From Obrimoposthia wandeli (Eukaryota), in assembly GCA_977020255.1 (NCBI GenBank), contig CDROCS010006690.1, positions 1 to 64,000 on the forward strand: a stretch of DNA of 64,000 nucleotides. Reading direction: 5' to 3'. Positions 1-23,338 of the stretch are shown here, piece by piece (position 1 is the first letter of the stretch; every line of letters begins with the position of its first letter). A model generated the notes under the pieces. The model was given only the letters and a program-made list of their open reading frames with translations. It was not told the DNA's origin and ran no database searches. The position numbers and the translations under genes were made by a program.

Positions 1-1052
1 GCAACATTCTATTAAAATATTGTGATTTAAATGGGCAACACAATTTTATTAAAATATTGTGATTTAAAGTGGGCAACACAATTCTATTAAAATAATGTGA
101 TTTAAAATGGGCAACACAATTCTATTAATATATTGTGATTTCAAATGCAAACAATTCCCACTAAAATATTGTAGTTAAAATGCTATCCAACCTCGTCGTC
201 TCACCGATTTGATCTTGAATATCCGAGATGGTCGCTTGCTTTTGTGGGATATCGAGCTTATGTAGACCTAGTCGACCGATTTGAGATTTGTGAGCTAAGT
301 TGGTTGATTTGAGATTTGCAAGCGAAATTGTCTGTTTTGAGGATTTGAGCTAAATTGTCTGATTTGAGATTTGCGAGCTAAATTGTCTGTTTGAGATTTG
401 CGAGCTAAATTGTCTGATTTGAGAGATTTGCGAGCTAAATTGTCTGATTTGAGGATTCAATTTCCTTTCCTTTAAGCAATTAATTTCAGGCAATCTAAAT
501 TATAGACTAAAATGAAATCGCCCAAATTCATACCTACTGCTTCTCCTCAGTCGATTGTCTATTCCGCTTTGTTTGTGTGTTCCTTCTCTTTTGTAATTGG
601 TTTGGGCAGCGACTTTTATAGTCGATTTTCAATCAGTAATGTCGGCAGTGTGCGTGTTTGTTTTCTTGGCGACTTTTATAGTCGATTGTCAATCAGCAAT
701 GTCGGGCAGCTGAAATATAATTCTGAGCGTAAAGTCTGACGGCTTCAGAAAATTCAATTAATTCACGGCACGAAAATGTGCTTACCGTTTCGCCGATTGA
801 CGTTTTCCAGTTCTGTTTTCTTTTAATTGCCAACATTTTTTGTTGCACTTTTGGGTTAATTAATCTAACTTTTATACATTTCACATTATACACGACCTTC
901 GTGGTCCTCTAATTTTACCCTAAATTCCACTAATTTCAATTCTAAAACTAAAATTAATATTTAATTTAATTTTCAACCTTGCTTTCCAAGGATTTTTTAT
1001 TTTAGTATTTAATCGGCTAAAATATTTAATTTCTTAATTCTCAAACCTAACA
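1..1052 (-). repeat. 3' LTR, partial (U3 end)
   Basis: Collinear with about 21900-22973, including the end of the 38-bp array and the 29-bp repeats. Similarity stops exactly after ...aaacctaaca (TGTTAGGTTT on minus). Confidence 0.95.
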
Positions 1053-1334: not shown

Positions 1335-1850
1335 TCAATTGTAATTGTCGGCTGGTTCCGACTGGCCAGGTAGCGCAGGACCTGCTCCAGGGGTAGGTCG
1401 GGAAAGGACGGACTGTCCCCGTTGTACAGGTGTAGTTGTTGGCTCCGGGTTAGGTGTGGGCTCTCGACAAACAGGTCGAAATACTGCCCGTTCATCGCGT
1501 GATTTTCTATCCAGAGACGTCTGGCCTGGAACCACAGTGGCAGTCTCGACTAGACCGCCATCTCTCGCGGATGCCCAGTTGTGTGTCGCGCCGGCGTGCG
1601 AGACACGCAGCCAGCGTGGCAATGTATGCCGCAATGCAGCTGGCAGGCGATCGGGTGCCCTTGTGCCTTCCACGGCTCTGGAGCGTCCATTTGCCAAAGG
1701 GTGTCCGGCACAGTGGACATGTGATATGGCCGGGGTCGAGCCTTGGCCCACAAATAGAAGGCACTCCTCGTGAAATTTGTGACGGCAGCCGACAGGGGAT
1801 GCTGATACCGCCCAAATCTTCTCCATACATACAGAGCACTTCATCTGCAT
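1335..1850 (-). pseudogene. RING-H2 protein 3 (frameshifted)
   Basis: MKCSVCMEKI...GCRHKFHEECL, then WAKARP and ITCPLCRTPF in adjacent frames. Confidence 0.72.
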
Positions 1851-2161
1851 AAGAAAATAACTCCTTTCAATTTGGGGTTCACCGTTCTCATCGTTAATTT
1901 AAATTTTAATTTCAAAACGAGTCCTTAGTTATCTAATCCTACCGAGTTTTGTTTCGATTTTAGGCATGTTTACGCATTCACACTAAGCATAAAATTGTCT
2001 TTTTTAGAAATTCAGTATAATAATTACAATTTCAGTTAAACATCATACATAAAAATGGTAATGGTCAATTTACAGTTCACAAGATTATATAATTATGATT
2101 ACAATTATGGTAGCTAATTTATCGCGGTATGCCATACACAGGGTAGTTCATGATGTCACGT

Positions 2162-2491
2162 TCAAGTCAGAAAGTTACCTTCGATTATTGTTGGGGATTG
2201 GGCTGGCCTGTGCTTCGCTCCTCCACGCAGAACGAGCACCAGCAATCGCAGATGGTTTTTCAGCAGTGTACGATGGGTACCACTGCTTGGAGGCTGTCCT
2301 GGTTGTACACGTAGTGTACTGAGAAGGTCGCTCTGCACATCGGGCAGGTTGGGAAGTCGAGGGATTGTTGCTGTTGGCAATGGGGATCCACGTCTCGAGG
2401 CATTCGACGTGGAAGAGAGGTGGTCGCAGTTGTTGGGCTTGGTGTAGAAGTCCACGATGCTCTCGTAGCAGATGGAACATTCTCCAGACAT
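2162..2491 (-). pseudogene. RING-H2 protein 2 (frameshifted)
   Basis: MSGECSICYESIVDFYTKPNNCDH continues in the neighbouring frame as LFHVECLETWIP. Confidence 0.7.
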
Positions 2492-2499
2492 TACTGTGG

Positions 2500-2849
2500 G
2501 AGGTTGATGTTGAATTTGGGCTCGATTGAGGACTGGTGGTTGTGTGATGTTTACACAAAGTGGTCGGATTTTGTCGATCTGACAAACAGTAATAACACCA
2601 ACACTCTCCGAAATTCTTCCAACAGAATACCACCTGTACATATACATCCTCTTGGTCGGGTTCTAACATGATGAATCTTGCGAATTGTCTTCTGCATACA
2701 GGGCAACAAGGGTATGTTGGATGTCCGAACTGTCCATAAGTTCTGATCCATGTCGATAAACATTCCTCGTGGTGTAAATGGTTTGCAGTTTCGGGTCTTG
2801 TTCTTCGTTCGGTTAGATCTTCCAAACATATTGGGCATTCTTCGGACAT
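2500..2849 (-). CDS. RING-H2 protein 1
   Basis: MSEECPICLEDL...HLHHEECLSTWI...CPVCRRQF. The 3' end is uncertain because of frameshifts. Confidence 0.75.
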
Positions 2850-2972
2850 TCTAAATACATGATGATGATTAATTTCTACATGAGTTTTATATATTTCTAC
2901 TATTTGTACAATCACTTCTAGATATTTCTACATATTTCACACACTAATTTATCTACAACCTCCTCTGACTTA

Positions 2973-4195: not shown

Positions 4196-5105
4196 GATCG
4201 TTCGATTCTAAACTCAGGAACTTCAATGAAACAAGTCAAATTACTCATATAGTACGGTCTTTCCTCGATGTGTTCATATATCGTTGGCTGGTACTCTGGT
4301 GCTGGTTCATCTAAAAATGGTGGTCTTGGTATAATTGTGTTGAATTTTTGTAAGTTCATTTGACCTGTTCGTCTTGCGAGATCATGCCGTTTCTTTTTGA
4401 TCTCAATTCTAACTTTGTACAACAAAACAAGATGAGTAATATTAATATTATAAATCCAATGATCAGTGCGAGTATTGGATTAATCAATTCTAGAATACCG
4501 TAACGTACTGCTGGTATTCCTTTACTCTTGATGGTTAATATTTTAAATTTGTGTGCACTTTGGTTGGATATGTCACTGAAAGTACTATTTTAGTTTGTCC
4601 AAATGTGTAGTCTTCACATGTGACAACATCAATTCCATAATGTCTATTAAGTGTTTTCATTTCGGTCAGCTGGAACTATACATATCCGTCCTGGACATCC
4701 TTTTACACACATGATCATTACAGCTTTACTGTAGGATGTCTTGATTATTTCTAGGGTGTTGTCTAGATTTCTCAAATGTAGATTATATTCGGATAATGTC
4801 ATCATTTCAGCTTTACTGGTCGGCATGGCTTGTAGTACCAATCCAATTACTACTCCATAAATCAATCCTTGTGCAACGGTGCACAGGGCCTTGACTGACC
4901 TTTTGCAAAGGGTTTTAATTATCAATCGTTTGAGAGATATCTGTTTCTGATTAGATCGTTTTGTTATCTGTCGTTGTTTTGACATCTCCTCGATTCCATT
5001 TCTTCCGATAATTAACTGTACCGGTTTACCTTGTATCGTCAACTTTCCGAATCCATTTTTGGCGGACAAGCATGTTTTATGTCCTTCCATCGTTTCAATT
5101 ATCAC
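4192..5105 (-). pseudogene. Putative type I membrane protein, broken by frameshifts
   Basis: Signal-like GLIYGVVIGLVLQAMPTSKA. A frame shift near 4665 gives an ectodomain ending in TM ILALIIGFIILILLILFCC (about 4430-4490). ORF 4192-4425 is a basic and Tyr/Pro-rich tail. Confidence 0.5.
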
Positions 5106-7702
5106 TCTCTTACTTCATACTCACGTGTTTTGATGACATCGCCATCGAATATATACGTTGGTCCTTTTGTATCAGCATCTTTTTGTATTTCCTTTACAAC
5201 TCGTTTTCTTCGCTTGCATCCAGCGAATGTTGTTGATATTCGGTCAAGTGTGCGCTGTCGGTCAGCTTCGTAATCTATTCGAAATTGATTCAGTATTCTG
5301 TTTTGTGGGTAAAATATCGCTTCATTTACTATATTGTCCTCGATCCTTTCGTCTAGATACACAAGCACTTTGTTCGTTGGTCCATTTGGTCTTTTCATCT
5401 TTACAAACTGAAATCTTTTACTGTCGGTTCTCATAGATCGAAGACATTTTCGGATGATCCACACATCAATTAGTCCTAACAACACTAATAGCATCATCAG
5501 TGCCGGTGTATGGTACTGTGTGGTGTAGTTGTGGATTTCGTTGAACCAGGAACTATTTCCGTGGTTGGAGCCTATCTCCTGTGCTCCCGTTATCGGCATT
5601 AAACAGCTTAACAAGCCTATCGCTAGCAATCTTTGGTATTGAAAGCTGGGCACTGTTGTTGTAGCTTCATTTGTTTCTCGTTGTTGTTTCCTCTTTTCGG
5701 TGTATTTCTCTATTTCTCGAACGAGTAACGGTTTGAATTCCGTATTTGGTCTATTCTGTTTGATGTAGACCATCGCTTCTTCTGGCGTGTGACCATGGTA
5801 CTCTACCAACAAGGATACACCTATGGTAGGCGCTAACATTGTACCTTTTTTCTGATATATCAGAACGCCGTTTCCTTCTGTGACTTCAGCTTGGATGGTT
5901 TGAGTCAATTTCGTCAGATGTTGTTGTGCATCGTTTATCTCTCGATTGGAAGCATGTATGTATCGAGTGGTGTCATCTTCAGTATTTTGACATAGACTAA
6001 TTATCTCGTTTCCGACTTCGACAATGTTGATTACTCGGTTGATACTGTGGAACTTTAATCCAGCAGTGTCTATATCTCCTGGATGACATAAAAATACTTT
6101 TGGCATTATCTGTGTAATTTTGTCGACTCCGGCTAAAAATAACCCGGTCAATGATAATGCTTGGAGGAAATTCTTTTCCTTTGGATCCTCAGGAATGTCG
6201 TCCATCCGTCTTTGTTCTTGCAACAGAAGTTGGTAATTTGCCAACTGTCCCAAAAAATTAAGATTTGGGTTTGCAATACTTCTTCTCTCCTGTAGGTATT
6301 TTAGCGCTTCTAGTACCTGCATTCGTCTAGTCTTTATTAGGTATGCTAATACTAGAGTTGCTGATCGAGAAATTCCTTTCTGACAATGTACTAACACTTT
6401 TCCTTGGTTCCGGAGTTCTCTGTGAAGTATTTCGTTTGTTTCTACAAACCATTCGAGAAGATTAGCGTCCATTGAGTCTTTTACTCTTAATGTCATAGCT
6501 CTGATTGTCTGATATTGTGATTTATGACTCATTGTAACGTTGATCACGTATGTTATCCCTTGTTCCAACAGTTTCTTTTCATCTGTTGCATCTTCCACAT
6601 TTCCGAGGTATAACTTATTTGGAATGATCTCACTCATTGGTGGCATTAATTCTGACTCTTCAAGTTTTAGTCTTTCTAATCTCTTCTCTATCTGTTCGTC
6701 GATGTTAGTTAGTTTTGCCAGTTTCTTTCCTCTCAGCATTCGTATTGCTGGAGAGGTATTCATCTTTGTCTCTGATGTCTGTTCCTTTGTTGAGTCTTCT
6801 TCCGACTCGGTCTCTTCTGCAGATTTAATTCGTCTTTCTTGTATATTCTGTTTCACGAATTCTATGTTTTGTCTTTTTCTGCTCTCTTTAGCGAATTCAA
6901 CCTCCATGGTTCTTCCGAATCGCTCTATTATGTTATCTTCGGATTCTGTTGATTCTGTATCGTTACTTTCCGGTTCGCTGTCTTCACTAGACTCGCTCGA
7001 AGGGTATTCTGGTATGTCTGTCTGAACTGAAATTAATGAAGGTGTTAGAATAATTGGATTGATTTCCCCTTCGTATTTGTGAATCGGATACGGTATTACA
7101 CTATCTTTAAGTATCTCAACTTGGAACTGTGCTCCATAGCACATGACAATTGTTTCCAATTTACCCATGATGGACAATCCATCAAAATAGGTAACATTCA
7201 GCTTAGATATCGGTGTCTTCGCATAATTAATTAAGTTTACTCGTATCTCAGTTGATGACGGCCATCGATGTTTTAGTAAAATTATAATTTCGTCGTTTAT
7301 CGATGTAATTACACTTGGTGCGGATGATACTATTTCGGCATGATATTTTGGCTGGTTTGAAGTTGTTACTTGTTCTCGGATCATATTGATTCTTTGTGGT
7401 TTTTTATTTTTAGCTTCCCACTTCCGGTATCCGCTGTCAATGCGTAATTCTGCCGTTGCTTTGATGATTTTATTGTTAGTCACTTCCGGATGGGTTGGCG
7501 AATGGAATCCTTCTATTACGCTCAACCTTACAGATACTTCCGTTTGATCTGTGTCTAACCGGTGAGATTCTGGTATACAACATACAATTGTCTTTCCATC
7601 AAAGTATTTGGTGTCCATCTGACAAATTATCTTTTCAGTGTCAGCGTCGATTAATTGGACTCTCATGATATCTCTTTTCCCATGTGAATTACGTAATACC
7701 AT
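5102..7702 (-). CDS. 866-aa accessory ORF: YFDG repeats, acidic linker, dual-specificity phosphatase, pseudophosphatase, signal/TM segments
   Basis: KLYLGN...ITYVINVT...D...VLVHCQKGISRSATLVLAYL...RRSIANPNLNFLGQL at 6230-6637. A second DSP-like copy at 5700-6122 has IYQKKGTMLA in place of HCxxGxSRS. Confidence 0.9.
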   Translation of the reverse strand: MVLRNSHGKRDIMRVQLIDADTEKIICQMDTKYFDGKTIVCCIPESHRLDTDQTEVSVRLSVIEGFHSPTHPEVTNNKIIKATAELRIDSGYRKWEAKNKKPQRINMIREQVTTSNQPKYHAEIVSSAPSVITSINDEIIILLKHRWPSSTEIRVNLINYAKTPISKLNVTYFDGLSIMGKLETIVMCYGAQFQVEILKDSVIPYPIHKYEGEINPIILTPSLISVQTDIPEYPSSESSEDSEPESNDTESTESEDNIIERFGRTMEVEFAKESRKRQNIEFVKQNIQERRIKSAEETESEEDSTKEQTSETKMNTSPAIRMLRGKKLAKLTNIDEQIEKRLERLKLEESELMPPMSEIIPNKLYLGNVEDATDEKKLLEQGITYVINVTMSHKSQYQTIRAMTLRVKDSMDANLLEWFVETNEILHRELRNQGKVLVHCQKGISRSATLVLAYLIKTRRMQVLEALKYLQERRSIANPNLNFLGQLANYQLLLQEQRRMDDIPEDPKEKNFLQALSLTGLFLAGVDKITQIMPKVFLCHPGDIDTAGLKFHSINRVINIVEVGNEIISLCQNTEDDTTRYIHASNREINDAQQHLTKLTQTIQAEVTEGNGVLIYQKKGTMLAPTIGVSLLVEYHGHTPEEAMVYIKQNRPNTEFKPLLVREIEKYTEKRKQQRETNEATTTVPSFQYQRLLAIGLLSCLMPITGAQEIGSNHGNSSWFNEIHNYTTQYHTPALMMLLVLLGLIDVWIIRKCLRSMRTDSKRFQFVKMKRPNGPTNKVLVYLDERIEDNIVNEAIFYPQNRILNQFRIDYEADRQRTLDRISTTFAGCKRRKRVVKEIQKDADTKGPTYIFDGDVIKTREYEVRE

Positions 7703-7887
7703 TATTACATCGTGGTATTCTTGTTTGAGTCTTTTGGTGTACCATGCAGTATGTGACCACCGGCCGGTTCTTTTTCTTCCTGACTGGCTAGTCCTGCTTC
7801 AGTACTGTCATAGTTCTGCCATGCAACTATGTTTGGTGTCAATGTGATTTCGATTATCACTTTCTCAGTCGTAAACACATTGGAATT

Positions 7888-9396
7888 TTAATAAAGCGCT
7901 GCGACTAGTGTATTCCCGTCATAGTATGACACTCTAAGTTCGCACAGAAATTCGTTTGTCAGTGCATCTTTCACAATGACTTCTTTCGCCACATCTGTTG
8001 GTTGTGTTTTTTCAAAAACAACTATTATCTCTTCGTCTTCTTCTAATATCTCTTGTGGTGCGATGTGTCGGATTACTTCCTTTTCCTCTTGGTACTTCAT
8101 TCTGAGCATACCAATTCTCGCTGGTTTTTTCTCGCTACCACTCGTCATCATGTTTATGTAGTTCTGATCACTTACCATTCGTGTAAGTTTAATGGTATTG
8201 GTATTCGATTTCGATTTCTGTGATCTTAACTCATATCGTGACGCATTATCTTTATTTGGTACTAATTTGCATCGATTTGCATGTACAATCATCGGTTCCT
8301 TGTTCCGATTCTCTTCGTTGATTACTTTCAAATTTGTTGAGGTTGTCTGGATCACCTTGTATGGTCCTTTGTATGGTCTATGAAGTTTAAACGATAGACC
8401 TGGTTCGATGACTGGATAAAATATCATCACTTGATCTCCGACTCTAAATTCATGCGGTTTTGCTTTTTTGTCGTATTGTTCCTTGTAACCTTCTTGATTG
8501 AATTTCAACTTCAATCCGGCTTTGGTCCAAGCATCTTGTAACCTTTCCTTCATGACGACAATGTATTGTTCAGTTTCTAGGTACTGAGATGTTGGCTCGG
8601 TCCACTCCAGATCCATTGGCATATTGTTCTGTCTGAGATACATCAGATAGAATGGTGTGTGACCCGTCGCCTCTCGAACTGAATTCCTGTAAGCATATAA
8701 ACATGAAGGTAAATATTTATCCCAATCCTCTTGCTTGTCTGAGCAATAGGATTGTACCATCATACATAAAGTTTTATTAAACCTTTCCACCAGACCATCT
8801 GTCTGTGGGTGATATGGTGAAGTTTGTAACTTCATGATTCCGAATATCTTCGATACTGCTTTTATGACTTCTCCAGTGAAGTTCTTACCTTGATCCGTTA
8901 ACAATTTTCTAGGCACTCCGTATCGAAATATTATCTCTTCTACTAAGATTTGTGCTATTGTTTCAGCCTTCTGGTTCTGCATGGGATATGCTTCTACCCA
9001 TCTCGTCATGTAATCCGTAAATACTATGACATACTTGTTTCCTTTACTTGATTCTCTCAATGGTCCCAATATATCCATCGCTGTGAATTCCATTGGTGCC
9101 AAGGGAACTGGCATTGGTTTCAGTGGAACTTTAGTACGAGTTCCGGTGTCTTTTCTGGTTAAACATACTTTACATTGTTTACACCATTGTTTTATGTCGT
9201 CTTCCATACCATCCCAATGGTACTTCTCTTTGATTCTGGCTATTGTCTTTCGCCCTGACAGATGTCCTCCTAGTGTTCCGTCGTGATACTGGATCATCAC
9301 TGCTGTTTTCAATGACTTCGGAATTACTACTACTATCTTTCCGACATTATTGACAATATACAAGATGCCTTCTTTTATCGAGTATTTTTTCGTCAT
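7888..9396 (-). CDS. pol: Integrase with C-terminal extension
   Basis: HHCC (HDGTLGGH...CKQC), DILGP, TDQGKNF, YHPQTDGLVERFN and GPY/F (YKGPYKV). Confidence 0.95.
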   Translation of the reverse strand: MTKKYSIKEGILYIVNNVGKIVVVIPKSLKTAVMIQYHDGTLGGHLSGRKTIARIKEKYHWDGMEDDIKQWCKQCKVCLTRKDTGTRTKVPLKPMPVPLAPMEFTAMDILGPLRESSKGNKYVIVFTDYMTRWVEAYPMQNQKAETIAQILVEEIIFRYGVPRKLLTDQGKNFTGEVIKAVSKIFGIMKLQTSPYHPQTDGLVERFNKTLCMMVQSYCSDKQEDWDKYLPSCLYAYRNSVREATGHTPFYLMYLRQNNMPMDLEWTEPTSQYLETEQYIVVMKERLQDAWTKAGLKLKFNQEGYKEQYDKKAKPHEFRVGDQVMIFYPVIEPGLSFKLHRPYKGPYKVIQTTSTNLKVINEENRNKEPMIVHANRCKLVPNKDNASRYELRSQKSKSNTNTIKLTRMVSDQNYINMMTSGSEKKPARIGMLRMKYQEEKEVIRHIAPQEILEEDEEIIVVFEKTQPTDVAKEVIVKDALTNEFLCELRVSYYDGNTLVAALY

Positions 9397-10412
9397 TTCA
9401 TCATTTCATCTCCTTTCACCAACAATTCTTTGATTAGACTCAGTTCTTCATCTTCTTTCTGTTCTTTGATGATCTCTTTGTCTATTTTACCCGTCTTTAG
9501 CAAAATCGTCAGTAGATTTGCTTCTCCTTTTTGGTCATTGGTTTCATCTTCTTCTGGAATGATGTTTCCTTTTTCATCTACATTTGTCAATCTCGATAAA
9601 CAATCTGCGTTGCCATTCGACTTTCCGGTTCTATAACGGATTTCTAGATCGAATTCGGCCAATTTTAGAAACCATCTGTTTAATCTACTCATCTCATCTC
9701 TATGTTTATACAAGAACTGTAGTGGTTTGTGATCTGTATATAGGAATACTTTTTGTCCTAGCAAGTAGTGTCTGTACTGTCTACATGAATACACTATGGC
9801 TAGACATTCCTTTTCGATAACAGAGTATCCTCTTTCGGCTCTGTTTAATCCTCTACTCGCATACGCGATGACGTGTTCTCTTCCTTCGTCATCCTCTTGT
9901 CCCAATACTGCTCCTACAGCATAGTTACTTGCATCTGTCATAAGTATGAATTGTCGGTTTATATCTGGAAACGCTAATATTGGTGCTTTTATCAGTCTTT
10001 CTTTTAAATGCTCGAACGCTTGTTGGGCTTCTTCTCCCCATATGAACTTCTCATCTTTTCTCGTCAACTTTCTCAATGGTGTTGCTATATCTGAAAAATG
10101 TTCAACAAATCGTCTATAATAATTCGCCAGACCTAAAAAACTCTGTATCTCCTTAACAGTCTTTGGCGCTAAATGCGCTTTTACTTTCTCGATCTTTGCT
10201 GGATCAGGTCGAATGCCTTCTTTCGATACTATATGTCCTAAAAATGTTACTCGCTCTTTAGCCCATTCGCATTTTGTAGGTTTAACTTTTAATTTAGCGT
10301 TTTCCAGTCTTTTAAATACAACTTCAAGATTTTTTAAATGTTCTTCGAACGTTTTCGAAAATATTATTATGTCATCGATATAAACCATCGTGTTTGCACG
10401 ATGCGAGTACAA
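9393..10412 (-). CDS. pol: Reverse transcriptase C-terminus and RNase H (frameshifted from upstream ORF)
   Basis: VYIDDIIIFS, FLGHIVS, SFLGLANYYRRFV, TDASNYAVGAVL, EKECLAIV, TDHKPL, NADCLSR. Confidence 0.95.
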   Translation of the reverse strand: MYSHRANTMVYIDDIIIFSKTFEEHLKNLEVVFKRLENAKLKVKPTKCEWAKERVTFLGHIVSKEGIRPDPAKIEKVKAHLAPKTVKEIQSFLGLANYYRRFVEHFSDIATPLRKLTRKDEKFIWGEEAQQAFEHLKERLIKAPILAFPDINRQFILMTDASNYAVGAVLGQEDDEGREHVIAYASRGLNRAERGYSVIEKECLAIVYSCRQYRHYLLGQKVFLYTDHKPLQFLYKHRDEMSRLNRWFLKLAEFDLEIRYRTGKSNGNADCLSRLTNVDEKGNIIPEEDETNDQKGEANLLTILLKTGKIDKEIIKEQKEDEELSLIKELLVKGDEMMK

Positions 10413-13400
10413 AATTCATGCAACGCTGAAATGTTGCTGGAGCTCCTGTCAGTCCGAATGGCATCTTTTCGCATTCGTATAATCCATCTCCGCAGGAAAA
10501 GGCTGTTTTGTGTTTATCCTCTTCCTCTATCTCGATTTGCCAGTATCCACTCTGCAAATCTAATGTTGTAAAATAATCTGAATTACCCAATTTATCGAGC
10601 ATCTCTTCGATTCTAGGTAATGGATACACATCTTTTCTTGTGATCTTGTTCAGTTCTCTGAAATCTATACAGAATCTCATTTTCCCATCCTTCTTTTTTA
10701 CCAACACCACAGGTGCTGAGAATGGCAAAAAACTCGGTCTAATTACTCCTGTTTTAGACATATCTTCAATCTGACTTTTTACTTCATCTTGTAACTGTAA
10801 TGGTACTCGATATGGTCTTCTTCTGACTACTTTGTCTTTTGTCAGTGGTATTGTATGTTTTATGACAGGTGTTTCTCCTATGTCATATGGATTTTTTGCA
10901 ATTACTTTCGGAAATTTATGTATTAGATCAAGTAATTGTTTCTTTTCTCTAGTTGTCAGTCTTTCTGATTGGATTACTATTTCTTCGTAATCATTCGTAT
11001 CTTTATCGAGTTTCATAGTGCATACAGTGGAATTCTCCATCTGTGCTATCTTTCCCAACCTCATTCCTCTGTATAATAGGATGTCATTGTTGGTTGTATT
11101 CATCAGTCTAACTGGTATTTTGTGGTTTTCGATCAGGCATACTGTACTCACAACTGGTAATTCGTATTTCTCTATGAAATCTCGTGATGGTTCGAACACA
11201 ACTGGTCCTTTATCTTCTGATAATGTGTGACCTTGAATAAGAAATTGCGATCTTTTACCGATTTTTATAGGATTCTCTATAATTACATCAATTTGGTTTA
11301 TTTGTCTGTTTGATGTGCTATCCTTCAATCTTGGATCTTGTAAATCAATACTTATCCCTTTAAGTTGTGATAGTACATCCATTCCTAAAATTGTAGGTTC
11401 AGGACATTCTTTCATGATTCTAACTGGTATAGTGATCGTATTACGTCCAATTATAAATGTACATGGTAATATTCCCGTTACTTTTACAGGGTCTCCATTG
11501 ACCGATACCAAGAATTCGTCTGGTTCTGCCATTGTTCGTTTCTGTTCCTCTGTCAAACAGTCTTCACTTACTATCGAAGCTACAGCACCTGTATCAATTA
11601 AGGCTTTTACTCTTAAATTATTTACTCTAATGATAGCTGCTGGTCGCTGTGCTCCATTTATGTTTCCCATATGGTATATTGTATTTATCGAATTATTACA
11701 CTCTGTCAGTCCACTTCCTATGTTTGGATAGTGAAATCTAATGTTTCTCACTTGTCGATCTATTATTCTTCGACAAATCGGACATGATACCATTTCATTC
11801 GCACATCTCCGACATGTTCTTACATGTCCGCATGGTAGAAAGGCAACTTCTATTTTGTTGACCATGCAAACTGCGCATTCCGGATCTTCTAGTACGTATT
11901 CTAGTTCATTTATGTACTCTTTCTCTTTTGTTTCAATTGTACTGTCATCTTTATCTCGCAGTAATTCAAAAATCGATCCGTATCCGTTTCGCGTAGTTTT
12001 TATTTTTAATTCTACCAATTCTCTGATTCTTTCTGCTTCTTTTGGATATAACCTTCTCACGAATGACACTACCGGTGTGTCTTGTTGAGCCAAAATCTCT
12101 TTCCGTGTGATTTGGTATTCGATTATACATTCGGTTTTCTGTTCTTTTTGCTTTATTTTGTTTTTAAAAGTACAAAATTCGCAAAATTCATGATGTAAAA
12201 TTTTCTTAGGTAGCTCAAGAGTATATCTGTCGATAATTCGTTCTTTTTTACACTTGTGGCATTTAATTACGTCTTTACCATCCTTTTTTATAGCAAAAAG
12301 TCCCTTTTTTGCCAATTTTTTAAGTCTTGGGTCTTCGAAGGTTATTTCTCGATACTGTTCGTCACATTCGTTCACTTCTCGCATAACTTCGAATATATCT
12401 TCAATTCGACTATTCGTTATTACTCTACCTGTTATTAGAGCTGATTCTCCTTTCGGAATCCCGTCACTGTAATCGAAATCGGGTGCTTTTCCCGTTTGGA
12501 TTTCTGGTACGTTTGACGTTTTCAGTTTCAAAAGAAATGGACAATTTGGTGCATCTCTTTTATGACGTCTCATTGGGTTTTCATTCTGTTCCCATTCTCT
12601 AAACTTTACTCTACACCATACGCATCGTACTACTATCTCCTGACCATAACTGCTTGTCGCGTTTAACATTTCTAAACCTGATCTTGCCATTTTACGTGCC
12701 ATTCCTTTTGAATAGTACTGTTCTAATATATTTCGTCTCTTTCTCTCGAATCTCATGGGATCCCTTTCTGACAGATTCACATATGTTATTTTTCTCCTCG
12801 TCATCTCTTGTGGTCCGAGGTTTACGTTTTTGTAGTGAAGTATCGACTTTACTAGCGCTTCCTGTTTTTTGTCTTGGTACGAATTTCCCATACGGAACGT
12901 AGTGTATTTTTCCTTTTCGACTATAGGTCCTCTCAACATTTTTATCTCTCTCACTGAACTGTCATTCTTATAACTCTTGTTGTTTGGTAGTATAATTATT
13001 CCTTCAAACATTCGTATTACGTCCATCCCAATCATGACTGGACTACCGCAATCTGTGAATATTCTAGCATTTAATTGTAATGCTCTTCCATCGATATTCA
13101 ATGAACATTTCAGTGTTCCTTCCGACACTACATCTGTACCATTCACGTTAACAAATGTCTGTTTTCTAGGACATACTTCTCTTAATTCTTTTGATGACAA
13201 GATTTCTTTACTTAGTACTGATACTGCTGATCCGGTATCAACTTCGGCAAGATATTCTCTTCCGTTCAATGTTACTGCTACTTGTGGTGGAGCATTTGGA
13301 TTCTCATTTGATATTCTAGATTTCAGAATTCTTCTGGAATTATCTTTTTTGTCTTTTTCCTCTGCTTGTGGAATTTCACTGTAGCTCACTTTAGGCCATC

Positions 13401-16400
13401 TTATCATTAAGATGCCTCTCTTGAATTTTTCCTTCTCTTCCTTCAATTCCTTCATTGGATATAGGTTTAACGCCACTTCTTCCTTGTCTGGTAATGGAAT
13501 CTTTGGTTTTCCTGGTATCTTTGCATATACTTCTGGACTATCATTATCGTCGTCGTTGTCGTCTCGATAGTTTCTTGGTTCTCGCATCATGGTTCTCGTT
13601 TGGTGTTGTTCCTTCTTGAGGGCTCGCAACTCGTTCTCGTGATGATGATGCATTAGATATTTTGCTAAAAATGGAAAACATCCAATTATAAGTTGCCAGG
13701 TGATTCCGGTTATCCTGTATAAACTATACGTAGACAACACCTGGGCTATAATTACCTGCACAAATTTAATTATAACATAAATACCTATGATACCCGAAAA
13801 TAATTGTCCTAAGACAAGGAATTTCCCCCACATCTTTCTAAGTGTCTGATGTGCTGCTTCCTTGAAATGACTTGGCGATAATAACATATCGAAATTCGCA
13901 TATCTCGCTCCTGGCGGTAATGCTCGATGTACCATCTCCGTAAGTACTCTGGCTCTTCTTACTGGAAACATTATTTCGTTCCACGCCGCTTTTAAATCTT
14001 TTTCATTGTACAATCCTGCGTTCTCCATATTTTCCATCGCTTGGAATTTCATTTTACCTTTAAGATTCGTCATTCTTATCATCGCTGGGGTTGTCGTTGG
14101 CTTCCGATCAGGTAACGTTATCCATAGATTATTCGTCATCTGATATTCAGGTGCCATTATATTAGAGCAGCTGATTTCTTTAGTTGGAGTGTCTTTTGGA
14201 AGTAACATTCTCGTGATTGGTTCAACAAAAAGATCTTTTAAATTATACGTTACTGCCAATTCGCTCGTACATCGATCTGTTTTTCTCAACTGTACCTCTA
14301 CTTTATTACACTTGTAAGTATATAATACTTCTCCCATGGTTTTAGCAAATACTCCTTCATCCAAGGGTAATAATGGTGCTACCATGTCTGGATTCGTAAT
14401 AGCTAATGCTAATTTTGTTCTTACGATCTCTTTGTTTAACTGGCAATCTCTTTCGATCATCATCCGATATAACTGTTCCATTTGCATCAATCCTTTATGA
14501 TAATAGAAATCAATTTTATTATTAAAATACGTGTGTAGCTGCATATCTTTTGGTTTTAGCTTGGTTTCTGCCAATGCTATTGCTTCTTTAGACAAAACTA
14601 TTCCTGGATAGTTTGTAGTACTAACAGTCATTCCGCATCGCGCTTTGTTTCTCTTTTTAATAAATATCAATCCTTCTTCTATTGATGTTGCCATTAACAG
14701 TGTAGGTGTTTTTGTCATTGGAATTGGTCTTGTTTCATTTAGCAATCCTTTTCCTACTTTATTATACAGGAACCCTTCTCCATCTTTATTATACAGGAAT
14801 CCTTTTATTTTATTAAAGCTAATCTCTTTCAAAAATACTAAAGAGCATTGCTTCGGATTTATGTTATACACAATTGTGGATTCACCTGTAAAACAAGATG
14901 CATCTGTCATTTTACATTCTGGATACTTCATCATTAGTTGTGTCTTTTTATCAAAATTGGCGGTCCATGTTTTTAATTCGATTTTGTAAGTTACATCCAT
15001 TACTAACTCAGATACTTTGGTTGCACTCACGTTTTTTGTTTCTCCGTCACAAGATCCATCAGCCCATCGTTGTCCGACTCTCGTGACTGTTTCGTATCGT
15101 CTCACTCCAATTTTTACTTCAGGTTTGTAATTCTTGTCTACCTCTATCGTTCCCGTTCGAAATGCATCTTCGCAATCTCTCGGCAAAACCTTATGTGCCT
15201 TGTACGGTGTGGTAGGTGTGATTTCTGACATAAAACTTCTATGGCCACAATAGAATTCGTGATAACTTGAATGGATTGAACATTCTTTCACTTCTACTTG
15301 TACTTTATCAACATCCTGATACACAAAGTAGTTTTCAACACCTTGAACTTCTAGTTTTGACGGTTGTGATTCTGGACAGTCTTCGCTGTCAAGCAGTGAA
15401 TACGTTTGTCCCATCTTTGGTATGCTACAGTCATATGCTATCAATCCTGATGCCTGTTGCATTCCCATGAACATTACTAACATCATCATCATCATTGTTG
15501 TGGACATATTTGGTTGATTGTTTCTCTCTTTCGGACGGTATTGTTTATTTTCCTTTTGACGATTCTCATGACATTGTTCGTCATCGTCTTCATTCATTTC
15601 CACAATGGTTTTAGCGTAGTCACTTAATTTTGCCCAACCTCCATTTTCGTCAATTCGTCTCTGTAATACATTCTCGATCAAATACATCGCTTCATTTATT
15701 CCTTGTTTGACTTCGTGAGGTTGGCTCGTTCGTTCCGTCAATTGGAAACATAGATATGTGATCGCTGTAATTAACTTTTTATTTGTAGTCTGGTTTCCAC
15801 ATAGTCTCGCTAAAACTTCACCGTCATAAAATCTATCTATCGATGCATGGTATACATGATTCGCGGTCATTCTCTTTACTGCAGACATCTGTGATCTGAC
15901 TGCTTTAGTCAAATTGTCTGTTATATCGGTTGTTTCATCTCTGTACATTTTAAACAACTTCGGCTTCACTTGCCTGAGAATTCCCGTAAGTATATCTTTA
16001 CTACTTGGAGTTTCCGAATTCATATCACCTCTGATATCTTCATTCCTCTCTGCACTATACTGCTCTAATGACGCTGCTAACTGTCCAATACTTAGATGTC
16101 TCTCTTCATCAGTTTGTGGTGCTGTTAGAACATTTCGTAATATACTTTCGCCTTTTCTAGGTCTTCCAGGTCCTCTTCGAAAATACTGATACTCAGTTTG
16201 ATTCTCTCCTGGATCATACGTTTCACCATTATACTGTATCTCTTGACTTGGTCCTTCTTCATGGCCAATCTCTTCACTTTGTCGCATCATTTGCTCTGCT
16301 TGTCTATCTTTGTATGCGGCATGCCAAATTGGTGAATCCAAATCTACAATCTCGGAGACTTCGTCTTCTCCTACTAGTTGGGTTACGGTTTCGTTTTGTC

Positions 16401-16759: not shown

Positions 16760-18364
16760 CTAGTGATCTCCTTTATAATGGAACAACATATTCATTCCAT
16801 CAATTTCAAGTTTCTCAGCCAACTTTTTCCGAATCGTTTTCATTGTTTGATACACGTTAAGTTTTTCATGTATTATCTGTCCGGAAATTAATCGAAGTGA
16901 AATTTTCATCGTTCCTTTTTGGTTTGATCTCTGTACATAACGACCATAACCTTTCAGTAGTCCTCGGGGTACTTCTTTGTAACCCAAGTTATCATGACTA
17001 TGTTTAACCAATTCTGCACGCACTTCTTCCAATCGGTGCACTTTAATTGTTTGCAATTTGGCCAGAACTTCTGGAGCTTCACTCGTTTCATCTAACGGTT
17101 GATTTAACGTCTCCTTAGCTTCACTAATTATCTTTTTTACATTTTCCATACTCGTAGCATTTCTTGCTGCTTCTACATGATCAGTCATAGGTTGTGCGTT
17201 ACACGTTTTCTCTATTGGTGTCTCATACGCTTCTAATATTCTATTCATTAAATCATTCATCTCTTCTCTCGAATGTAGACTTTTCTCTTGTTTCGACAAC
17301 GTAGATGAATTTGCCATCTTTGTATGTGGTGAATCTTTAATTATTCCCAACATTCGTTCAAATTTACTATCACTATCTTCAAAATCTATTTCGCGTCGAA
17401 GCTCGGTCTCGCGATTCCTATCACTGTCATCGTTTACATAACTAAAATTTCCTTTCGGTTTCGGCGAACTCTCACGACTATTTGTCTTGTCGACATTATT
17501 ATTATTATATCTACCAGAATTATTATATCTCTCAGCTCCTTGCTGTCCTACGTAATTATTGTATCTCTCAGCTCCTTGCTGTCTATCTGCATAGTTATTA
17601 TATCTACCTGGTGACTGTTGTCTATCTGTATACTGATTATTCAGTCTCCATGGCTGTGGAGTATATCCACCACCTCTATTCCATGGCGGAGGTGAATTAT
17701 ATCCTCTATAATTATTTCCAAAATTATTATTACCGAAATTATTATTTCCAAATCTGTTAGCTCCGAACTCTTTACTTCTCGTACAATCTCTCGAATAGTG
17801 ACCCATTTGTTTACACGTGTAACACATTATTCTCCCTCGAATATCTATCTTATTTTGTTCATCTTCGAACTGTACTCGACGACTATTTTGTCTATTATCA
17901 TAGCGTCCTCTAAAATCATTTCTTCGGAAATTCGATTCAAAACCGCTTCCTCGATTATTGAATCTTCCGTCGCTATTTCCTGTATTATTTCCAAATCGAG
18001 AGTCACTTCGCTCTCCTCTGTTGGCGTTATAATTCCTATCGTCTCCTCTCCAAGGTTGGCGATTTCCTGAATTATCTCTATTAAATCTATTCCTGGAATC
18101 ATCTCTATTTCTATTCCACGAATCATTATTATTTCTACCTCTTGAATCATCTCGATTCCTGTTCCAAGACTCACTATTATTTCTACCTCTCGAATCATCT
18201 CGATTCCTACTTCGGAAATTATCTCTATTTCCGTTACTGGATTCATCTACTTTTTCAAACTTATTTTGTCCATAATTTCGATTCTGAAAATTACTCGGTT
18301 CTGTTTTATTCACGAAGACCTTTGTCTTATCGTCGTCACCTGCAGTCATTGCGTAGATTGCCAA
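16760..18364 (-). CDS. gag: Gag C-terminal part: N/R/G-rich repeats, CCHC zinc knuckle, C-terminal ubiquitin-like domain
   Basis: CYTCKQMGHYSRDC at 17783-17824. It overlaps the previous ORF by 19 nt, and one extra A in the A5 run would fuse them. Confidence 0.85.
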   Translation of the reverse strand: MAIYAMTAGDDDKTKVFVNKTEPSNFQNRNYGQNKFEKVDESSNGNRDNFRSRNRDDSRGRNNSESWNRNRDDSRGRNNNDSWNRNRDDSRNRFNRDNSGNRQPWRGDDRNYNANRGERSDSRFGNNTGNSDGRFNNRGSGFESNFRRNDFRGRYDNRQNSRRVQFEDEQNKIDIRGRIMCYTCKQMGHYSRDCTRSKEFGANRFGNNNFGNNNFGNNYRGYNSPPPWNRGGGYTPQPWRLNNQYTDRQQSPGRYNNYADRQQGAERYNNYVGQQGAERYNNSGRYNNNNVDKTNSRESSPKPKGNFSYVNDDSDRNRETELRREIDFEDSDSKFERMLGIIKDSPHTKMANSSTLSKQEKSLHSREEMNDLMNRILEAYETPIEKTCNAQPMTDHVEAARNATSMENVKKIISEAKETLNQPLDETSEAPEVLAKLQTIKVHRLEEVRAELVKHSHDNLGYKEVPRGLLKGYGRYVQRSNQKGTMKISLRLISGQIIHEKLNVYQTMKTIRKKLAEKLEIDGMNMLFHYKGDH

Positions 18365-19158
18365 TGCTGCATTATTATATTTTTCTCAATCTCTCTCGCC
18401 TTTCGTACGGCGTTATCAAAATCATTTGTATCCGATACTGCTAATAACACTTTAATATCCTTTTTCAATCCTCCTCTAAATATATCTAACAAGACCTCTG
18501 CCATTTCATTTTGGTTCCGGTCATTTTCCGCTGCTTGTGCTTCTTGAGGTACAGGAATACCGTCCTGATTTCTCATTATTCTTCTTGGGTACGCTCTTGC
18601 GGCCAAGGTTCTCAAAACATACGCGTATTCATTCACGCCTTCATCATGTTTCTGTTTCCGTTCTCTCATGAGTCGCTTATTTACTTTGGCTAAGTCTCCT
18701 AATACCAATTTTCCAATAAAAGCATTTTCCAACGTTGGCCAGTCTAAACGTTCTGCTTCTGTCAAATGTTTATACACTTCAAGTGCTAATCCGGTTAAAT
18801 GTGCCTGTACTCTGACACATTTTTCTTTATCGTTCCATCCTTGAACATCTGCACAACTCGAATATTCTGCGAGGAAGTCACAAATACTTTCCTCATCTCC
18901 TTTAAATTTTGTAATCTGCAATGATCCTGAAAAATTGGGTCTCAACGTCGCATTTAAAGCTTGTGCCAACTGCTCGGCATTCATGTCACCTACATTATTT
19001 CCTGCATTAATATCTGCTTGAGCTCCTGGGTGAGCCATATCTTCAATTATATCGTCTTCAACTATTTCTTCAATATTATTCAACGGAACTTCCTCAATCA
19101 CTACTGGATTGGCAATTTCAAATTCTTCTGGGTCTATGTCACCAAATAATTCAGTCAA
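18346..19158 (-). CDS. gag: Gag, capsid-like N-terminal part
   Basis: Retrotransposon-gag pattern KFKGDEESICDFLAEY...WNDKEKC...LTGLALEVY...WPTLENAF...RKQKHDEGVNEYAYVLRTLA...FRGGLK. First ATG at 19038. The frame is open up to about 19390. Confidence 0.85.
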   Translation of the reverse strand: MTELFGDIDPEEFEIANPVVIEEVPLNNIEEIVEDDIIEDMAHPGAQADINAGNNVGDMNAEQLAQALNATLRPNFSGSLQITKFKGDEESICDFLAEYSSCADVQGWNDKEKCVRVQAHLTGLALEVYKHLTEAERLDWPTLENAFIGKLVLGDLAKVNKRLMRERKQKHDEGVNEYAYVLRTLAARAYPRRIMRNQDGIPVPQEAQAAENDRNQNEMAEVLLDIFRGGLKKDIKVLLAVSDTNDFDNAVRKAREIEKNIIMQHWQSTQ

Positions 19159-19429
19159 ATTAAAACTGCCGGTTGAAACCGCTGATTGATCAACGTCTCT
19201 TTCTGATACGTTTTCTTCGACTCTAGTCTTTTTTGTTACTTTGTTATCTGCTTGGGGAACCTGTTCAATTCGGTTAACTTTATTATTATTTATCTCTTCC
19301 TTGGGAATCTGACTTTGTCTTCTAGTATTAAACGCGGGTCCTTTTCTATTATCCGTTGTCTTATCAATTATGTATTCGTTTACGATATCAATTTACTTAT
19401 TATTTTTTATCTTATTTCACAATTCTTGT

Positions 19430-19650
19430 TTTATGATTTTTTATCTCTTTAATTAGTTCGAGGACAGAGTCTCCCGACTTAACCTATTCAATTAATTACT
19501 TCGAGTATCAATCCACTCGATTCTCACTTTATCAAATTTATTTACGATTTTATCTTTTTAATTAGTTCGAGGACAGAGTCTCCCGACTTAACTTATTCAA
19601 TTAATTACTTCGAGTATCAATCCACTCGATTCTCACTCTATCAAATTTAC
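19430..19650. repeat. About 109-bp tandem duplication in the retroelement leader
   Basis: attagttcgaggacagagtctcccgacttaac... starts at both 19452 and 19561. Confidence 0.9.
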
Positions 19651-19654
19651 TGAC

Positions 19655-20356: not shown

Positions 20357-20375
20357 ATCCTCACTCGGGGCACCA
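20357..20375 (-). promoter_or_regulatory. Primer-binding site, elongator tRNA-Met-like
   Basis: Minus strand TGGTGCCCCGAGTGAGGAT lies 8 nt inside the LTR end. It resembles the complement of the metazoan elongator tRNA-Met 3' end (TGGTGCCCCGTGTGAGGAT). Confidence 0.8.
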
Positions 20376-20586
20376 CTTTAATATGTTGGGGTTTCTATAC
20401 GAAACTTGGTACAGATCCTCTGAAATGCGGAGGGCCCCAACGTGAGTTCGAATAGAAGCAGGTCTTAAAGTTGGTCGTGGCCTACTTAGTGTTATGGTTG
20501 CCTATCTCTTGTACTATCTGAAGGTATTTGATTTGATGTCTCTTAATTTGAAGGTGTAAAACAACTGGTTCTAATGTAGGAAATCG

Positions 20587-20592
20587 TTTATT
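20587..20592 (-). promoter_or_regulatory. Candidate polyadenylation signal in LTR
   Basis: AATAAA on minus, about 200 nt before the LTR 3' end. Confidence 0.5.
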
Positions 20593-20811
20593 GGTAATTC
20601 ACAAATCTAAAACACAACAATACGTTTATGTACGTATTTTCTAAAAAGTACAGTAAAAATTCCTAAGACTTCTGTAAGTCTCTATAACCAGTGGGGATGA
20701 ACCACGTATCGATTTTACGTTAAGGGTAATCGAGATTTTAGAGTTGTTCCTCTAACTCTCTTGACGACAATATTGTAGGGCAATTACTTCTTTAACAATT
20801 ATTGTAGTTCA

Positions 20812-22100
20812 AAAGGGGCAAACAATTCTACTAAAATATTGTGGTTTAAAATGGGTAAACAATTCTACTAAATTATTTTGGTTTACAATGGGCAAACAAT
20901 TCCACTAAATATTGTGATTTAAAATGGGCAACACAATTCTATTAAAATATTGTGATTTTTAAAATGGGCAACACAATTCTATTAAAATATTGTGATTTTT
21001 AAAATGGGCAACACAATTCTATTAAAATATTGTGATTTAAAATGGGCAACACAATTCTATTAAATATTGTGATTTAAAATGGGCAACACAATTCTATTAA
21101 AATATTGTGATTTAAAATGGGCAACACAATTCTATTAAAATATTGTGATTTAAAATGGGCAACACAATTCTATTAAAATATTGTGATTTAAAATGGGCAA
21201 CACAATTCTATTAAAATATTGTGATTTAAAATGGGCAACACAATTCTATTAAAATATTGTGATTTAAAATGGGCAACACAATTCTATTAAAATATTGTGA
21301 TTTAAAATGGGCAACACAATTCTATTAAAATATTGTGATTTAAAATGGGCAACACAATTCTATTAAAATATTGTGATTTAAAATGGGCAACACAATTCTA
21401 TTAAAATATTGTGATTTAAAATGGGCAACACAATTCTATTAAAATATTGTGATTTAAAATGGGCAACACAATTCTATTAAAATATTGTGATTTAAAATGG
21501 GCAACACAATTCTATTAAAATATTGTGATTTAAAATGGGCAACACAATTCTATTAAAATATTGTGATTTAAAATGGGCAACACAATTCTATTAAAATATT
21601 GTGATTTAAAATGGGCAACACAATTTTATTAAAATATTGTGATTTAAAATGGGCAACACAATTCTATTAAAATATTGTGATTTAAAATGGGCAACACAAT
21701 TCTATTAAAATATTGTGTTTTAAAATGGGCAACACAATTCTATTAAAATATTGTGATTTAAAATGGGCAACACAATTCTATTAAAATATTGTGATTTAAA
21801 ATGGGCAACACAATTTTATTAAAATATTGTGATTTAAAATGGGCAACACAATTCTATTAAAATATTGTGTTTTAAAATGGGCAACACAATTCTATTAAAA
21901 TATTGTGATTTAAAATGGGCAACACAATTCTATTAAAATATTGTGATTTAAAATGGGCAACACAATTCTATTAAAATATTGTGATTTAAAATGGGCAACA
22001 CAATTCTATTAAAATATTGTGATTTAAAATGGGCAACACAATTCTATTAAAATATTGTGATTTAAATGCAAACAATTCCACTAAAATATTGTAGTTTAAA
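20812..22100. repeat. 38-bp tandem minisatellite inside LTR (about 33 copies)
   Basis: Unit aaaatgggcaacacaattctattaaaatattgtgattt, with the period checked at 21121/21159. Copies degenerate at both edges. The same array ends at 1-180 in the other LTR. Confidence 0.97.
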
Positions 22101-22200
22101 ATGCTATCAACCTCGTCGCGTCTCACCGATTTGATCTTAGATATCCGAGATGGTCCTTGCCTTTTGTGGGATATCCGAGCTTGTGTAGACCTAGTCGACC

Positions 22201-22330
22201 GATTTGAGGATTTGTGAGCTAAGTTGGTTGATTTGAGGATTTGCAAGCGAAATTGTCTGTTTTGAGGATTTGCGAGCTAAATTGTCTGATTTGAGGATTT
22301 GCGAGCTAAATTGTCTGATTTGAGGATTCA
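22201..22330. repeat. 29-bp tandem repeat inside LTR
   Basis: Unit gatttgaggatttgcgagctaaattgtct, 4-5 copies. The counterpart is at about 277-455. Confidence 0.9.
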
Positions 22331-23338
22331 ATTTCCTTTCCTTTAAGCAATTAATTTCACTGATTTGAGGGTTCAATTTCCTTTCCTTTAAGCAATTAAT
22401 TTCAGGCAATCTAAATTATAGACTAAAAAATGAAATCGCCCAAATTCCTTACCTACTAACTTCTCCTCAGTCGATTGTCTATTCCGCTTTGTTTGTGTGT
22501 TCCTTCTCTTTTGTAATTGGTTTGGGCAGCGACTTTTATAGTCGATTTTCAATCAGTAATGTCGGCAGTGTGCGTGTTTGTTTCTTGGCGACTTTTATAG
22601 TCGATTGTCAATCAGCAATGTCGGGCAGCTGAAATATATTTCCTGAGCGTAAGTCCTGACAGCTGAAAAATTCAATTAATTCACGGCACGAAAATGTGCT
22701 TACCGTTTCCTTGATTGACGTTTTTCGAAGTTCCTGTTTTTCTTTTAATTACTGTTTTTTTGTTGCACTTTTGGGTTAATTAATCTAACTTTTATACATT
22801 TCACATTATACACGACCTTCGTGGTCCTCCTAATTTTTACCCTAAATTCCACTAATTTCAATTCTAAAACTAAAATTAATATTTAATTTAATTTTCAACC
22901 TTGCTTTCAAGGACTTTTATTTTAGTATTTAATCGACTAAAATATTTAAATTTCTTAATTCTCAAACCTAACACTTCTAGTAGTGTTGCTCTTTTATACA
23001 GAGCCAGGGAAAACAGAATTTGTCCAATCAGACACCGGCGGTAGAGGGAATATTCGCATCCGGGCCTGTAATCCGTCTGATCTGACCGCAAAGCTTGTAT
23101 TTTGAACTGGGACGGGGAAAACTGGCCGAGTGAGATAAATATTCCAAAAATCAATAATGCACAGGCAGCATTTGAACTGGGACGGGGAAAACACAGCACA
23201 TATCCGTCTACACAGCAGAGGCACTATCCGACAGTTTGTCAGTTCTGCACGCACGAGATGATGACGCTGCTGCATTGATGTAACTGGTCGAACCAGGAAA
23301 CTGTAGTAACAGTTGACGATGAAATGAAAAGGGAAATG

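Follow-up and report, generated by a model that had tools for sequence, protein, structure and literature searches.

The window, i.e., the whole stretch of 64,000 nucleotides that was analysed, holds on its minus strand a copy of a giant LTR retroelement of the Ty3/gypsy type, whose length of about 24.5 kb follows from an LTR spacing of 21-22 kb plus an LTR of 2.2-2.8 kb. Its domains run Gag-CCHC, possible BCL2-like region, fusion glycoprotein, a first aspartic protease (PR1), an IAP, a second aspartic protease (PR2), reverse transcriptase, RNase H, integrase, phosphatase and RING ORFs, and the PR-RT-RH-IN order of the Pfam matches is the one expected of Ty3/gypsy. The 5' LTR (20384..22973, minus strand, as are all features of the window given below) reads TGTTAGG...CCCCAACA and has an internal 38-bp tandem array; 8 nt after it comes the primer-binding site, which starts TGG (20358..20375). 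The 3' LTR (1..1052) is cut by the contig start and is 91.5% identical to 21927-22973, with gap positions outnumbering mismatches. The LTR ends are TG...CA, and 4-bp target-site duplications were found in three of four LTR pairs from other copies, where LTR-LTR identity was 99.0-99.8%; the fourth pair, in which no LTR start motif could be located, was 94-97% identical.

The gag region with its CCHC knuckle (16760..19392; Pfam zf-CCHC) occupies two frames here and one in another copy. Downstream of it, the region with an NGGW motif at 15574..16020 is a possible BCL2-like domain: its Pfam Bcl-2 match had an E value of 0.05, a host-Bcl-2 HMM gave it 5.3 bits against 5.8 for the best of 500 shuffles, its single-sequence model (pLDDT 40) resembled unrelated helical proteins most closely (best Z 6.5), and its Atlas recognition score was low. 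The glycoprotein (env, 13552..15510), in frame upstream of PR1, is of the mononegavirus/chuvirus type (Pfam Monjiviricetes_fusion, PF24664, E 1.9e-94, best stretch 13552-14712), its upstream limit having been set from a hydrophobic leader. PR1 (13018..13281; Pfam Asp_protease_2) has DTGS at 13228-13239 and PR2 (11356..11649; Pfam RVP, gag-asp_proteas) has DTGA at 11584-11595; the two are 30% identical (E 4e-17), and the catalytic Asp is kept in 24/25 copies for PR1 and in 26/26 for PR2, so that the IAP module sits between two intact proteases. Reverse transcriptase and RNase H (9393..10701; Pfam RVT_1, RT_RNaseH), whose stretch changes frame near 10400 in the window copy, are followed by the integrase (7888..9405; Pfam Integrase_H2C2, rve) and by a post-integrase region (5102..7798), in the pol frame in another copy, that contains a dual-specificity phosphatase (6230-6613; Pfam DSPc E 2.3e-41, in two stretches) and a second DSP-like repeat without the HCxxGxxR motif. 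Small RING-finger ORFs (1335..2927; Pfam zf-RING_2) lie near the 3' end.

The frame changes of the window copy are near 18376, 16740, 10400, 9400 and 7735 and, repeatedly, below 5114, all of them outside the IAP. Another natural copy has a single frame of 5478 aa that holds gag, env, PR, BIR, RING, PR, RT, RH, IN and DSP, with the 3' RING ORFs lying outside it, and because of this copy the IAP is to be regarded as part of a gag-env-pol polyprotein. The preliminary description, which had it fused into pol, was right about a complete in-frame module, which does not, however, belong to pol alone. A genome search with the module gave 111 scored matches from 24,763 first-look candidates (figures that count matches and candidates, not copies), every one of them 98-100% identical and 110 without an internal stop, while open frames across copies ranged from about 700 to 5478 aa. 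The element has been mass-amplified recently. Chance or an assembly artefact was ruled out by the domain matches, the 111 near-identical matches and the invariant ligands of the IAP.

The IAP module

End-to-end alignment with stand-alone relatives and with a host gene, together with Pfam, placed the module at 11719..12864 (polyprotein aa 1284-1665), within a minus-strand open frame of 2113 aa (16713-10372) that encloses all the IAP motifs. The order is a conserved pre-BIR segment, BIR1, a variant BIR2, a UBA-like region, a RING and a tail. An earlier span of 11761..12760 had the place right, and the alignment to relatives has widened its limits, the start lying about 35 codons upstream at about 12864 and the end at about 11719.

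BIR1 (12526..12753) has the exact CX2CX16HX6C zinc motif that had been claimed for it, as a pattern search found CVWC-X16-H-X6-C at 12541-12624 and Pfam BIR matched above its cut-off (E 2.9e-10); all four ligands are kept in 26/26 element copies. In a sequence alignment with cIAP1 BIR3, BIR1 has neither the Trp nor the Glu of WVEHAKW, residues with a role in the IBM groove, and it probably does not belong to the classical IBM-binding BIRs. BIR2 (12172..12372) matches Pfam BIR below the cut-off (E 0.01). Its motif at 12172-12261 also fits CX2CX18HX6C in a pattern search, and the X18 spacing had led to its being called degenerate. The spacing is real, and the degeneration is not: CX2CX18HX3C (C1485, C1488, H1507, C1511) recurs in five of the six relatives that have a BIR2, i.e., the host exon, a 341-aa Polinton gene and the database proteins P0002, P0003 and P0007, and the sixth, P0024, has X19HX3C. 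The Cys at H+7 that had been taken as the ligand is not kept in the six relatives. Since both candidate cysteines are kept within the element copies (24/26 and 25/26), the ligand assignment rests on the relatives. Counting X17-19HX3C patterns among the database matches proved too unspecific to be informative. Decay inside the element was ruled out, since the host gene, which is spliced, and the Polinton copy have this variant spacing too; judged by it, BIR2 is a variant inherited from the host family.

The region between BIR2 and the RING (11941..12099) is probably UBA-like, a name suggested by an alignment to cIAP1 between BIR3 and RING that is weak and not significant alone, by three helices in the structure model and by conservation in the family; Pfam UBA_BIRC2-3 had no match anywhere in the genome. 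The RING (11773..11877; C-X2-C-X11-C-X-H-X3-C-X2-C-X6-C-X2-C) is, as had been proposed, of the IAP-type C3HC4 class, with a Pfam zf-C3HC4_3 match above its cut-off (E 2.2e-11), cIAP1/BIRC2 as best PDB sequence match (E 1.7e-15) and all 8 ligands kept in 26/26 element copies. The best solved relatives of the module by sequence were cIAP1, NAIP, cIAP2 and XIAP; its AlphaFold model had a mean pLDDT of 53 with the RING unresolved, and the Foldseek matches were BIR domains. The module thus resembles cIAP1/BIRC2, XIAP and DIAP1/2 in its order of BIR, probable UBA-like region and C3HC4 RING and in its PDB sequence matches, and differs from these cellular IAPs in that it is embedded in a polyprotein and belongs to a family with a variant second BIR, mostly longer tails and a separate, long-branched clade.

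Host gene, Polinton copies and the family tree

The genome has a spliced gene of the same IAP family, recognised as five collinear exon matches over about 15 kb (G000:C2454) with AG/GT splice signals; in the search, which covered 60 kb, their E values were 7e-22 to 6e-5. The model of this gene is without a middle exon, which lowered its scores. The exons cover the pre-BIR segment, BIR1, BIR2, the UBA-like region and then a terminal RING exon, and the gene shares the BIR2 variant and the tail with the element IAP. The same terminal exon, with a splice acceptor, the family tail and four collinear exon matches upstream, was one of 20 loci in a genome search with the RING, the others being 17 element copies and 2 other RING genes. 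The mobile copies are intronless, as capture through mRNA would predict, and we infer that the element IAP arose from a host IAP gene as a processed copy without introns.

Farther afield, a search of 1.84 billion representatives put four full-length relatives (P0002, P0003, P0007 and P0024) among its best 150, a profile search returned 2 proteins, and a metagenome scan gave 46 loci that were mostly RING-only matches. Queried with the N-terminus of P0002, this genome gave no match to it. Identity between the module and its relatives is only about 30-38%. Like the module, baculoviral IAPs are carried by mobile elements, lack introns and have two BIRs plus a RING; unlike it, they are stand-alone genes. 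A scan of viral contigs with the family profile found only 3 distant loci (22-34% identity), and a baculoviral origin was rejected in favour of the host family because the closest kin, in trees that hold no named baculovirus IAP, are genes of the Polintons and the host gene with its spliced exons. Of the baculoviral/cellular layout named in the preliminary description, then, the cellular part stands and the baculoviral part does not, the nearest kin belonging to a family of flatworm host genes.

When the genome was searched for BIR domains, two more families of repeats came to light, one with an ORF of 341 aa and the other with one of 301 aa. Next to these ORFs lie genes for an A32 ATPase, an rve integrase (with a chromodomain in one), a jelly-roll capsid protein (a weak match) and pPolB, and by this company both families are carried by Polinton/Maverick elements. 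The Polinton IAPs are of the same family as the retroelement IAP (35-38% identical, with tails of RNIRFH or RNVKFH) and differ from it in being stand-alone intronless ORFs with their own stop; the 301-aa protein has BIR1, the UBA-like region and the RING, and its BIR2 is absent.

In the tree, a single clade (100/100) unites the element, Polinton and host IAPs with the four database proteins and separates them from other cellular IAPs; it appeared again in a RING-only tree without the host (99/99). As outgroups served 6 database matches, cut down to the last 330 aa, and to our knowledge no further flatworm IAP was among the sequences. Inside the clade the retroelement, the Polintons and P0024 group apart from the host gene (85/93). 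Without P0024, which has a long branch, and with a simpler model, the retroelement and the Polintons still group (72/70). A pairing of host and retroelement was rejected at the borderline under the simple model (p-AU 0.048), and for one of host and Polintons p-AU was 0.19. A tentative scenario, to which we give somewhat less than even weight, is that the IAP was captured once, from the host gene with its introns, and then moved between the env-bearing LTR retroelement and the Polintons, with BIR1 diversifying in an arms race with host antagonists. If so, three mobile lineages in one genome amplify the same apoptosis regulator, and do so by two expression strategies, a protease-flanked cassette in a polyprotein and a stand-alone gene. 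The retroelement and the Polintons may instead have made independent captures. The literature searched, which left most subscription journals outside, contained no report of IAP sharing between a retrotransposon and Polintons, and there was nothing on twin proteases, a host donor or Polinton copies in the relevant passages of PMC11410931, PMC10175614, PMC10680173, PMC8532177, PMC13217685 and PMC4061559.

Tail, processing and selection

The tail (11719..11772) is homologous to the natural C-terminus of the host and Polinton IAPs, which bears out the suggestion that the residues after the RING resemble the end of an IAP. That suggestion went with a requirement that the RING be C-terminal and with a candidate cut at a particular Phe, the 13th residue beyond the final Cys of the RING. 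It is true that 118 of the 147 RING-bearing proteins among the best 150 database matches end exactly 13 residues after that Cys. The homology of the element tail nevertheless extends onward through IRFH, and the stand-alone members of the family have tails of 16 (host), 18 and 18 (Polintons) and 13, 19, 27 and 29 residues (database), i.e., 6/7 are longer than 13. The case for an end at that Phe is weakened accordingly, and since stand-alone tails span 13-29 residues a cut need not fall there; the family provides IAP RINGs with natural tails beyond the usual 13 residues.

As encoded, the frame runs on past the RING into PR2, so that the RING is not at the C-terminus and is predicted to become so only after processing. 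The candidate C-terminal cut is a Tyr-Pro at about 11725-11730, which would leave a tail of 15 residues; an aromatic-Pro bond is a preference of retroviral proteases, and the Tyr and the Pro are both present in 25/26 copies. An alternative candidate is the INT-I stretch just before PR2, with a tail of about 30 residues, and both lengths are within the natural range of the family. The motif behind this second candidate, [IV][NRKC][MTQ][MLI], was defined after looking and serves as a lead; it was not enriched, with 3 occurrences where 2.0 were expected and 5 where 2.6 were expected, and 160/500 and 51/500 shuffles scoring as high. A C-terminal extension impairs the RING dimers of cIAP and XIAP, and no usable paper on the effect of extending an IAP tail was found in the literature searched. 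Release by protease gains in plausibility from the proteases that flank the IAP on both sides, and it is these two intact enzymes, along with a RING tail that has no following stop in any of the 26 copies examined, that make a protease-free production of the IAP most improbable, whether from a transcript that is spliced, starts internally or ends early. Such a transcript would fit the observations that stand-alone relatives begin near the homologous pre-BIR segment, and that the frame breaks of many copies would truncate the polyprotein near the module.

Selection was gauged from related copies whose choice depended on their similarity to other queries, so that the dN/dS values are not independent and serve as indications. 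For the module dN/dS was 0.22-0.37 in all 16 pairings of the window with diverged copies, and pN/pS pooled over 16 copies was 0.08 for PR1, 0.12 for PR2, 0.12 for BIR2, 0.16 for the RING, 0.17 for the UBA-like region and 0.73 for BIR1. Shared variants among 26 copies (synonymous, then non-synonymous) numbered 11 and 3 in the RING plus tail, 14 and 3 in the UBA-like region, 23 and 4 and 8 and 2 in the proteases, 8 and 13 in the linker between PR1 and the IAP, and 14 and 30 in BIR1. In a second set of 16 copies, picked through the RING (one of 17 having been removed as a same-contig duplicate), the UBA-like region and the proteases were again conserved and BIR1 again variable (11 and 33), the RING plus tail was intermediate (14 and 10), and the constraint on BIR2 was not reproduced (11 and 25). 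These counts indicate purifying selection on the RING, the UBA-like region and both proteases, with a BIR1 surface that varies; the RING/UBA arm likely has a conserved function and BIR1 is likely a variable surface for binding partners.

It might be argued that the IAP is a passenger that persists for no other reason than that pol expression would not survive a stop or frameshift within it, and an in-frame position does by itself forbid stops and indels; the many replacements accepted in BIR1 and in the pre-BIR segment would also be in keeping with this. A mere passenger is nonetheless very unlikely, for the RING plus tail and the UBA-like region resemble the proteases in their counts where the PR1-IAP linker has excess replacements, and all 8 RING ligands are invariant in a module with only the modest identity to its relatives noted above.

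Burro elements and the role of the module

Burro elements, as outlined in the section that a review devotes to them, are over 30 kb long with an ORF1 of 4,873-5,140 aa that includes Gag-CCHC, BCL2-like, in-frame env, BIR, dUTPase-like and ankyrin regions; their MATH domain is variable, and the SUMO-like domain of Burro1 (also GYPSM1) was detected by HHpred (PMC6431247). Passages of a second paper state that the Burro1 B-IAP (BIR-RING) protects stem cells from caspase-mediated apoptosis (PMC13465017, citing doi 10.1016/j.devcel.2026.03.001). The likeness had been raised in the preliminary description, and it is apt: common to both are a planarian-type host, a giant LTR element with a single ORF of about 5000 aa, a Gag CCHC, a mononegavirus-type env in frame between gag and pol, a BIR in the polyprotein, thousands of candidate copies and, going by the same passages of PMC13465017, a RING in addition to the BIR. 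The element is, however, shorter (about 24.5 kb against over 30 kb for Burro1) and its ORF longer (5478 aa against the reported 4,873-5,140 aa). Over that 5478-aa frame Pfam gave no ankyrin, MATH or SUMO-like domain at E<=1, and between PR and RT there was no Pfam or PDB sequence match to a dUTPase-like region, the reported Burro detection having been made by HHpred. The possible BCL2-like region lies upstream of env, where Burro elements have theirs. The best RT-RH matches of the element were 57% identical or less, with no named Burro sequence among them. On balance its sequence features very probably make it one of the Burro/B-IAP kind.

An IAP in a Burro polyprotein is already known in kind, given that both the Burro BIR and B-IAP are in print (in the sections cited of PMC6431247 and PMC13465017), and the proviso that novelty would drop if such an element had been described comes into force. 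What is variant here is the cassette with a protease on either side, the phosphatase carried along and the triangle of host, retroelement and Polinton copies in one genome. The Burro section of PMC6431247 makes no mention of a phosphatase pair, 3' RING ORFs or twin proteases around the IAP, and the primary Burro papers may describe these variant features.

With these precedents, we favour, as a reading that we consider fairly probable, a Burro-type element with a host-derived IAP that is released by protease and dampens caspase-dependent death of the cells that express it. After the transmembrane segment of env the chain would return to the cytosol, where PR1 and PR2 would cut the polyprotein on either side of the IAP, an IAP of about 380-420 residues would be freed in step with RT and integrase, its RING would act as a ubiquitin E3, and the released protein would damp caspase-dependent death of element-expressing cells, as reported for Burro1 B-IAP. 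A different role, in which the module serves the life cycle of the element, its RING and UBA-like region acting on the polyprotein, on particle assembly or budding, or on host restriction and signalling factors, possibly within a processing intermediate, would agree with the conservation of those two domains while BIR1 drifts, with the Polinton family that lost BIR2 and kept BIR1, the UBA-like region and the RING, and with the extra RING ORFs and the phosphatase, which suggest a broad interference with signalling. We regard it as unlikely all the same, as the BIR1 zinc ligands are invariant (26/26 copies), the Polintons, whose life cycle is different, keep the same gene as a stand-alone one, which points to a host-directed function, and the phenotype reported for Burro1 B-IAP in the passages of PMC13465017 is anti-apoptotic. 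B-IAP in Burro1 reportedly underlies a mutualism between host and transposon in planarian stem cells, according to those passages. The present genome adds a comparative set, i.e., a spliced gene of the donor family, a protease-caged copy in a retroelement and two Polinton families, one of them without BIR2, that makes testable the origin of B-IAP, the domains that matter and whether mobile elements of triclads have taken up apoptosis inhibitors repeatedly.

The lineage of the host was read from COX1 copies that lie in several contigs and are open in table 9 (the flatworm/echinoderm code). Their best named matches, among 8000 candidates scored, were triclads at 73-75%, and the COX1 tree placed the host as far down as the triclads (93/89). 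One contig (C652) carries both a COX1 copy and a copy of the element. By these sequences the host is a triclad-like flatworm, in agreement with the hosts of Burro. The assembly also contains contaminant sequences. With no named COX1 relative above 75%, the animal is probably none of the well-sampled model planarians, and it may extend the range over which such elements are known.

The IAP family in Polinton/Maverick-like elements and host genes

Stand-alone members of the IAP family carried by the retrotransposon were encoded in Polinton/Maverick-like elements of the same flatworm assembly (G000), as ORFs of 341 and 301 aa on contigs C399 (loci L104-L105) and C3067 (L106-L107). The gene set of these IAP-bearing elements (L104-L107) comprised an A32 ATPase, an rve integrase, a jelly-roll capsid protein and pPolB, and many of the 150 BIR matches that were scored in the genome search fell in frames of 341 aa. 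On contig C3084 (L096, L097), a truncated Polinton-type IAP was seen in three repeats spaced ~7.15 kb apart.

The family was also represented by a spliced host gene on the minus strand of contig C2454 (L133:4265-4961 and L134:1669-9351), for which five exons were matched and a middle exon was not found. Pfam confirmed BIR domains in further host genes at L082 and L083, which by eye we take to be survivin-like and BIRC6-like.

Other cargo and repeats of the retrotransposon

Within the retrotransposon, window positions 5102-7798 encode a dual-specificity phosphatase, in which the motif HCQKGISRS is intact, followed by a second, similar repeat from which the motif is absent; in another copy of the element, the equivalent region shares the pol frame. 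Several small RING ORFs lie outside the polyprotein, at the 3' end of the element (1335-2927).

The LTR, which ranges from 2176 to 2754 bp across copies, includes a 38-bp tandem array (20790-22200), and the 5' leader holds arrays of 49, 109 and 20 bp (19439-20324). Low-complexity repeats rich in Asn, Arg, Gly and Asp flank the CCHC knuckle of Gag (17480-18330). A lone stretch of 10 bases at ~31827 matches the end motif of the LTR, probably by chance.

Remainder of the window and COX1 genes of the assembly

A Pfam search with the 389-aa open frame at 29503-30672 gave no convincing match. Judged by eye, fragments at 37203-38338, 42023-42535 and 46887-48370 resemble Tc1/mariner, MULE and other retroelement proteins, and the frames at 52852-53238 and 63269-64000 resemble host exons (inositol-phosphate-kinase-like and RhoGEF-like).

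Flatworm COX1 copies were found on at least eight contigs of the assembly, which also holds many bacterial-looking COX1 genes without TGA stops and one mitochondrial contig (C5352) that is non-flatworm and invertebrate-like.
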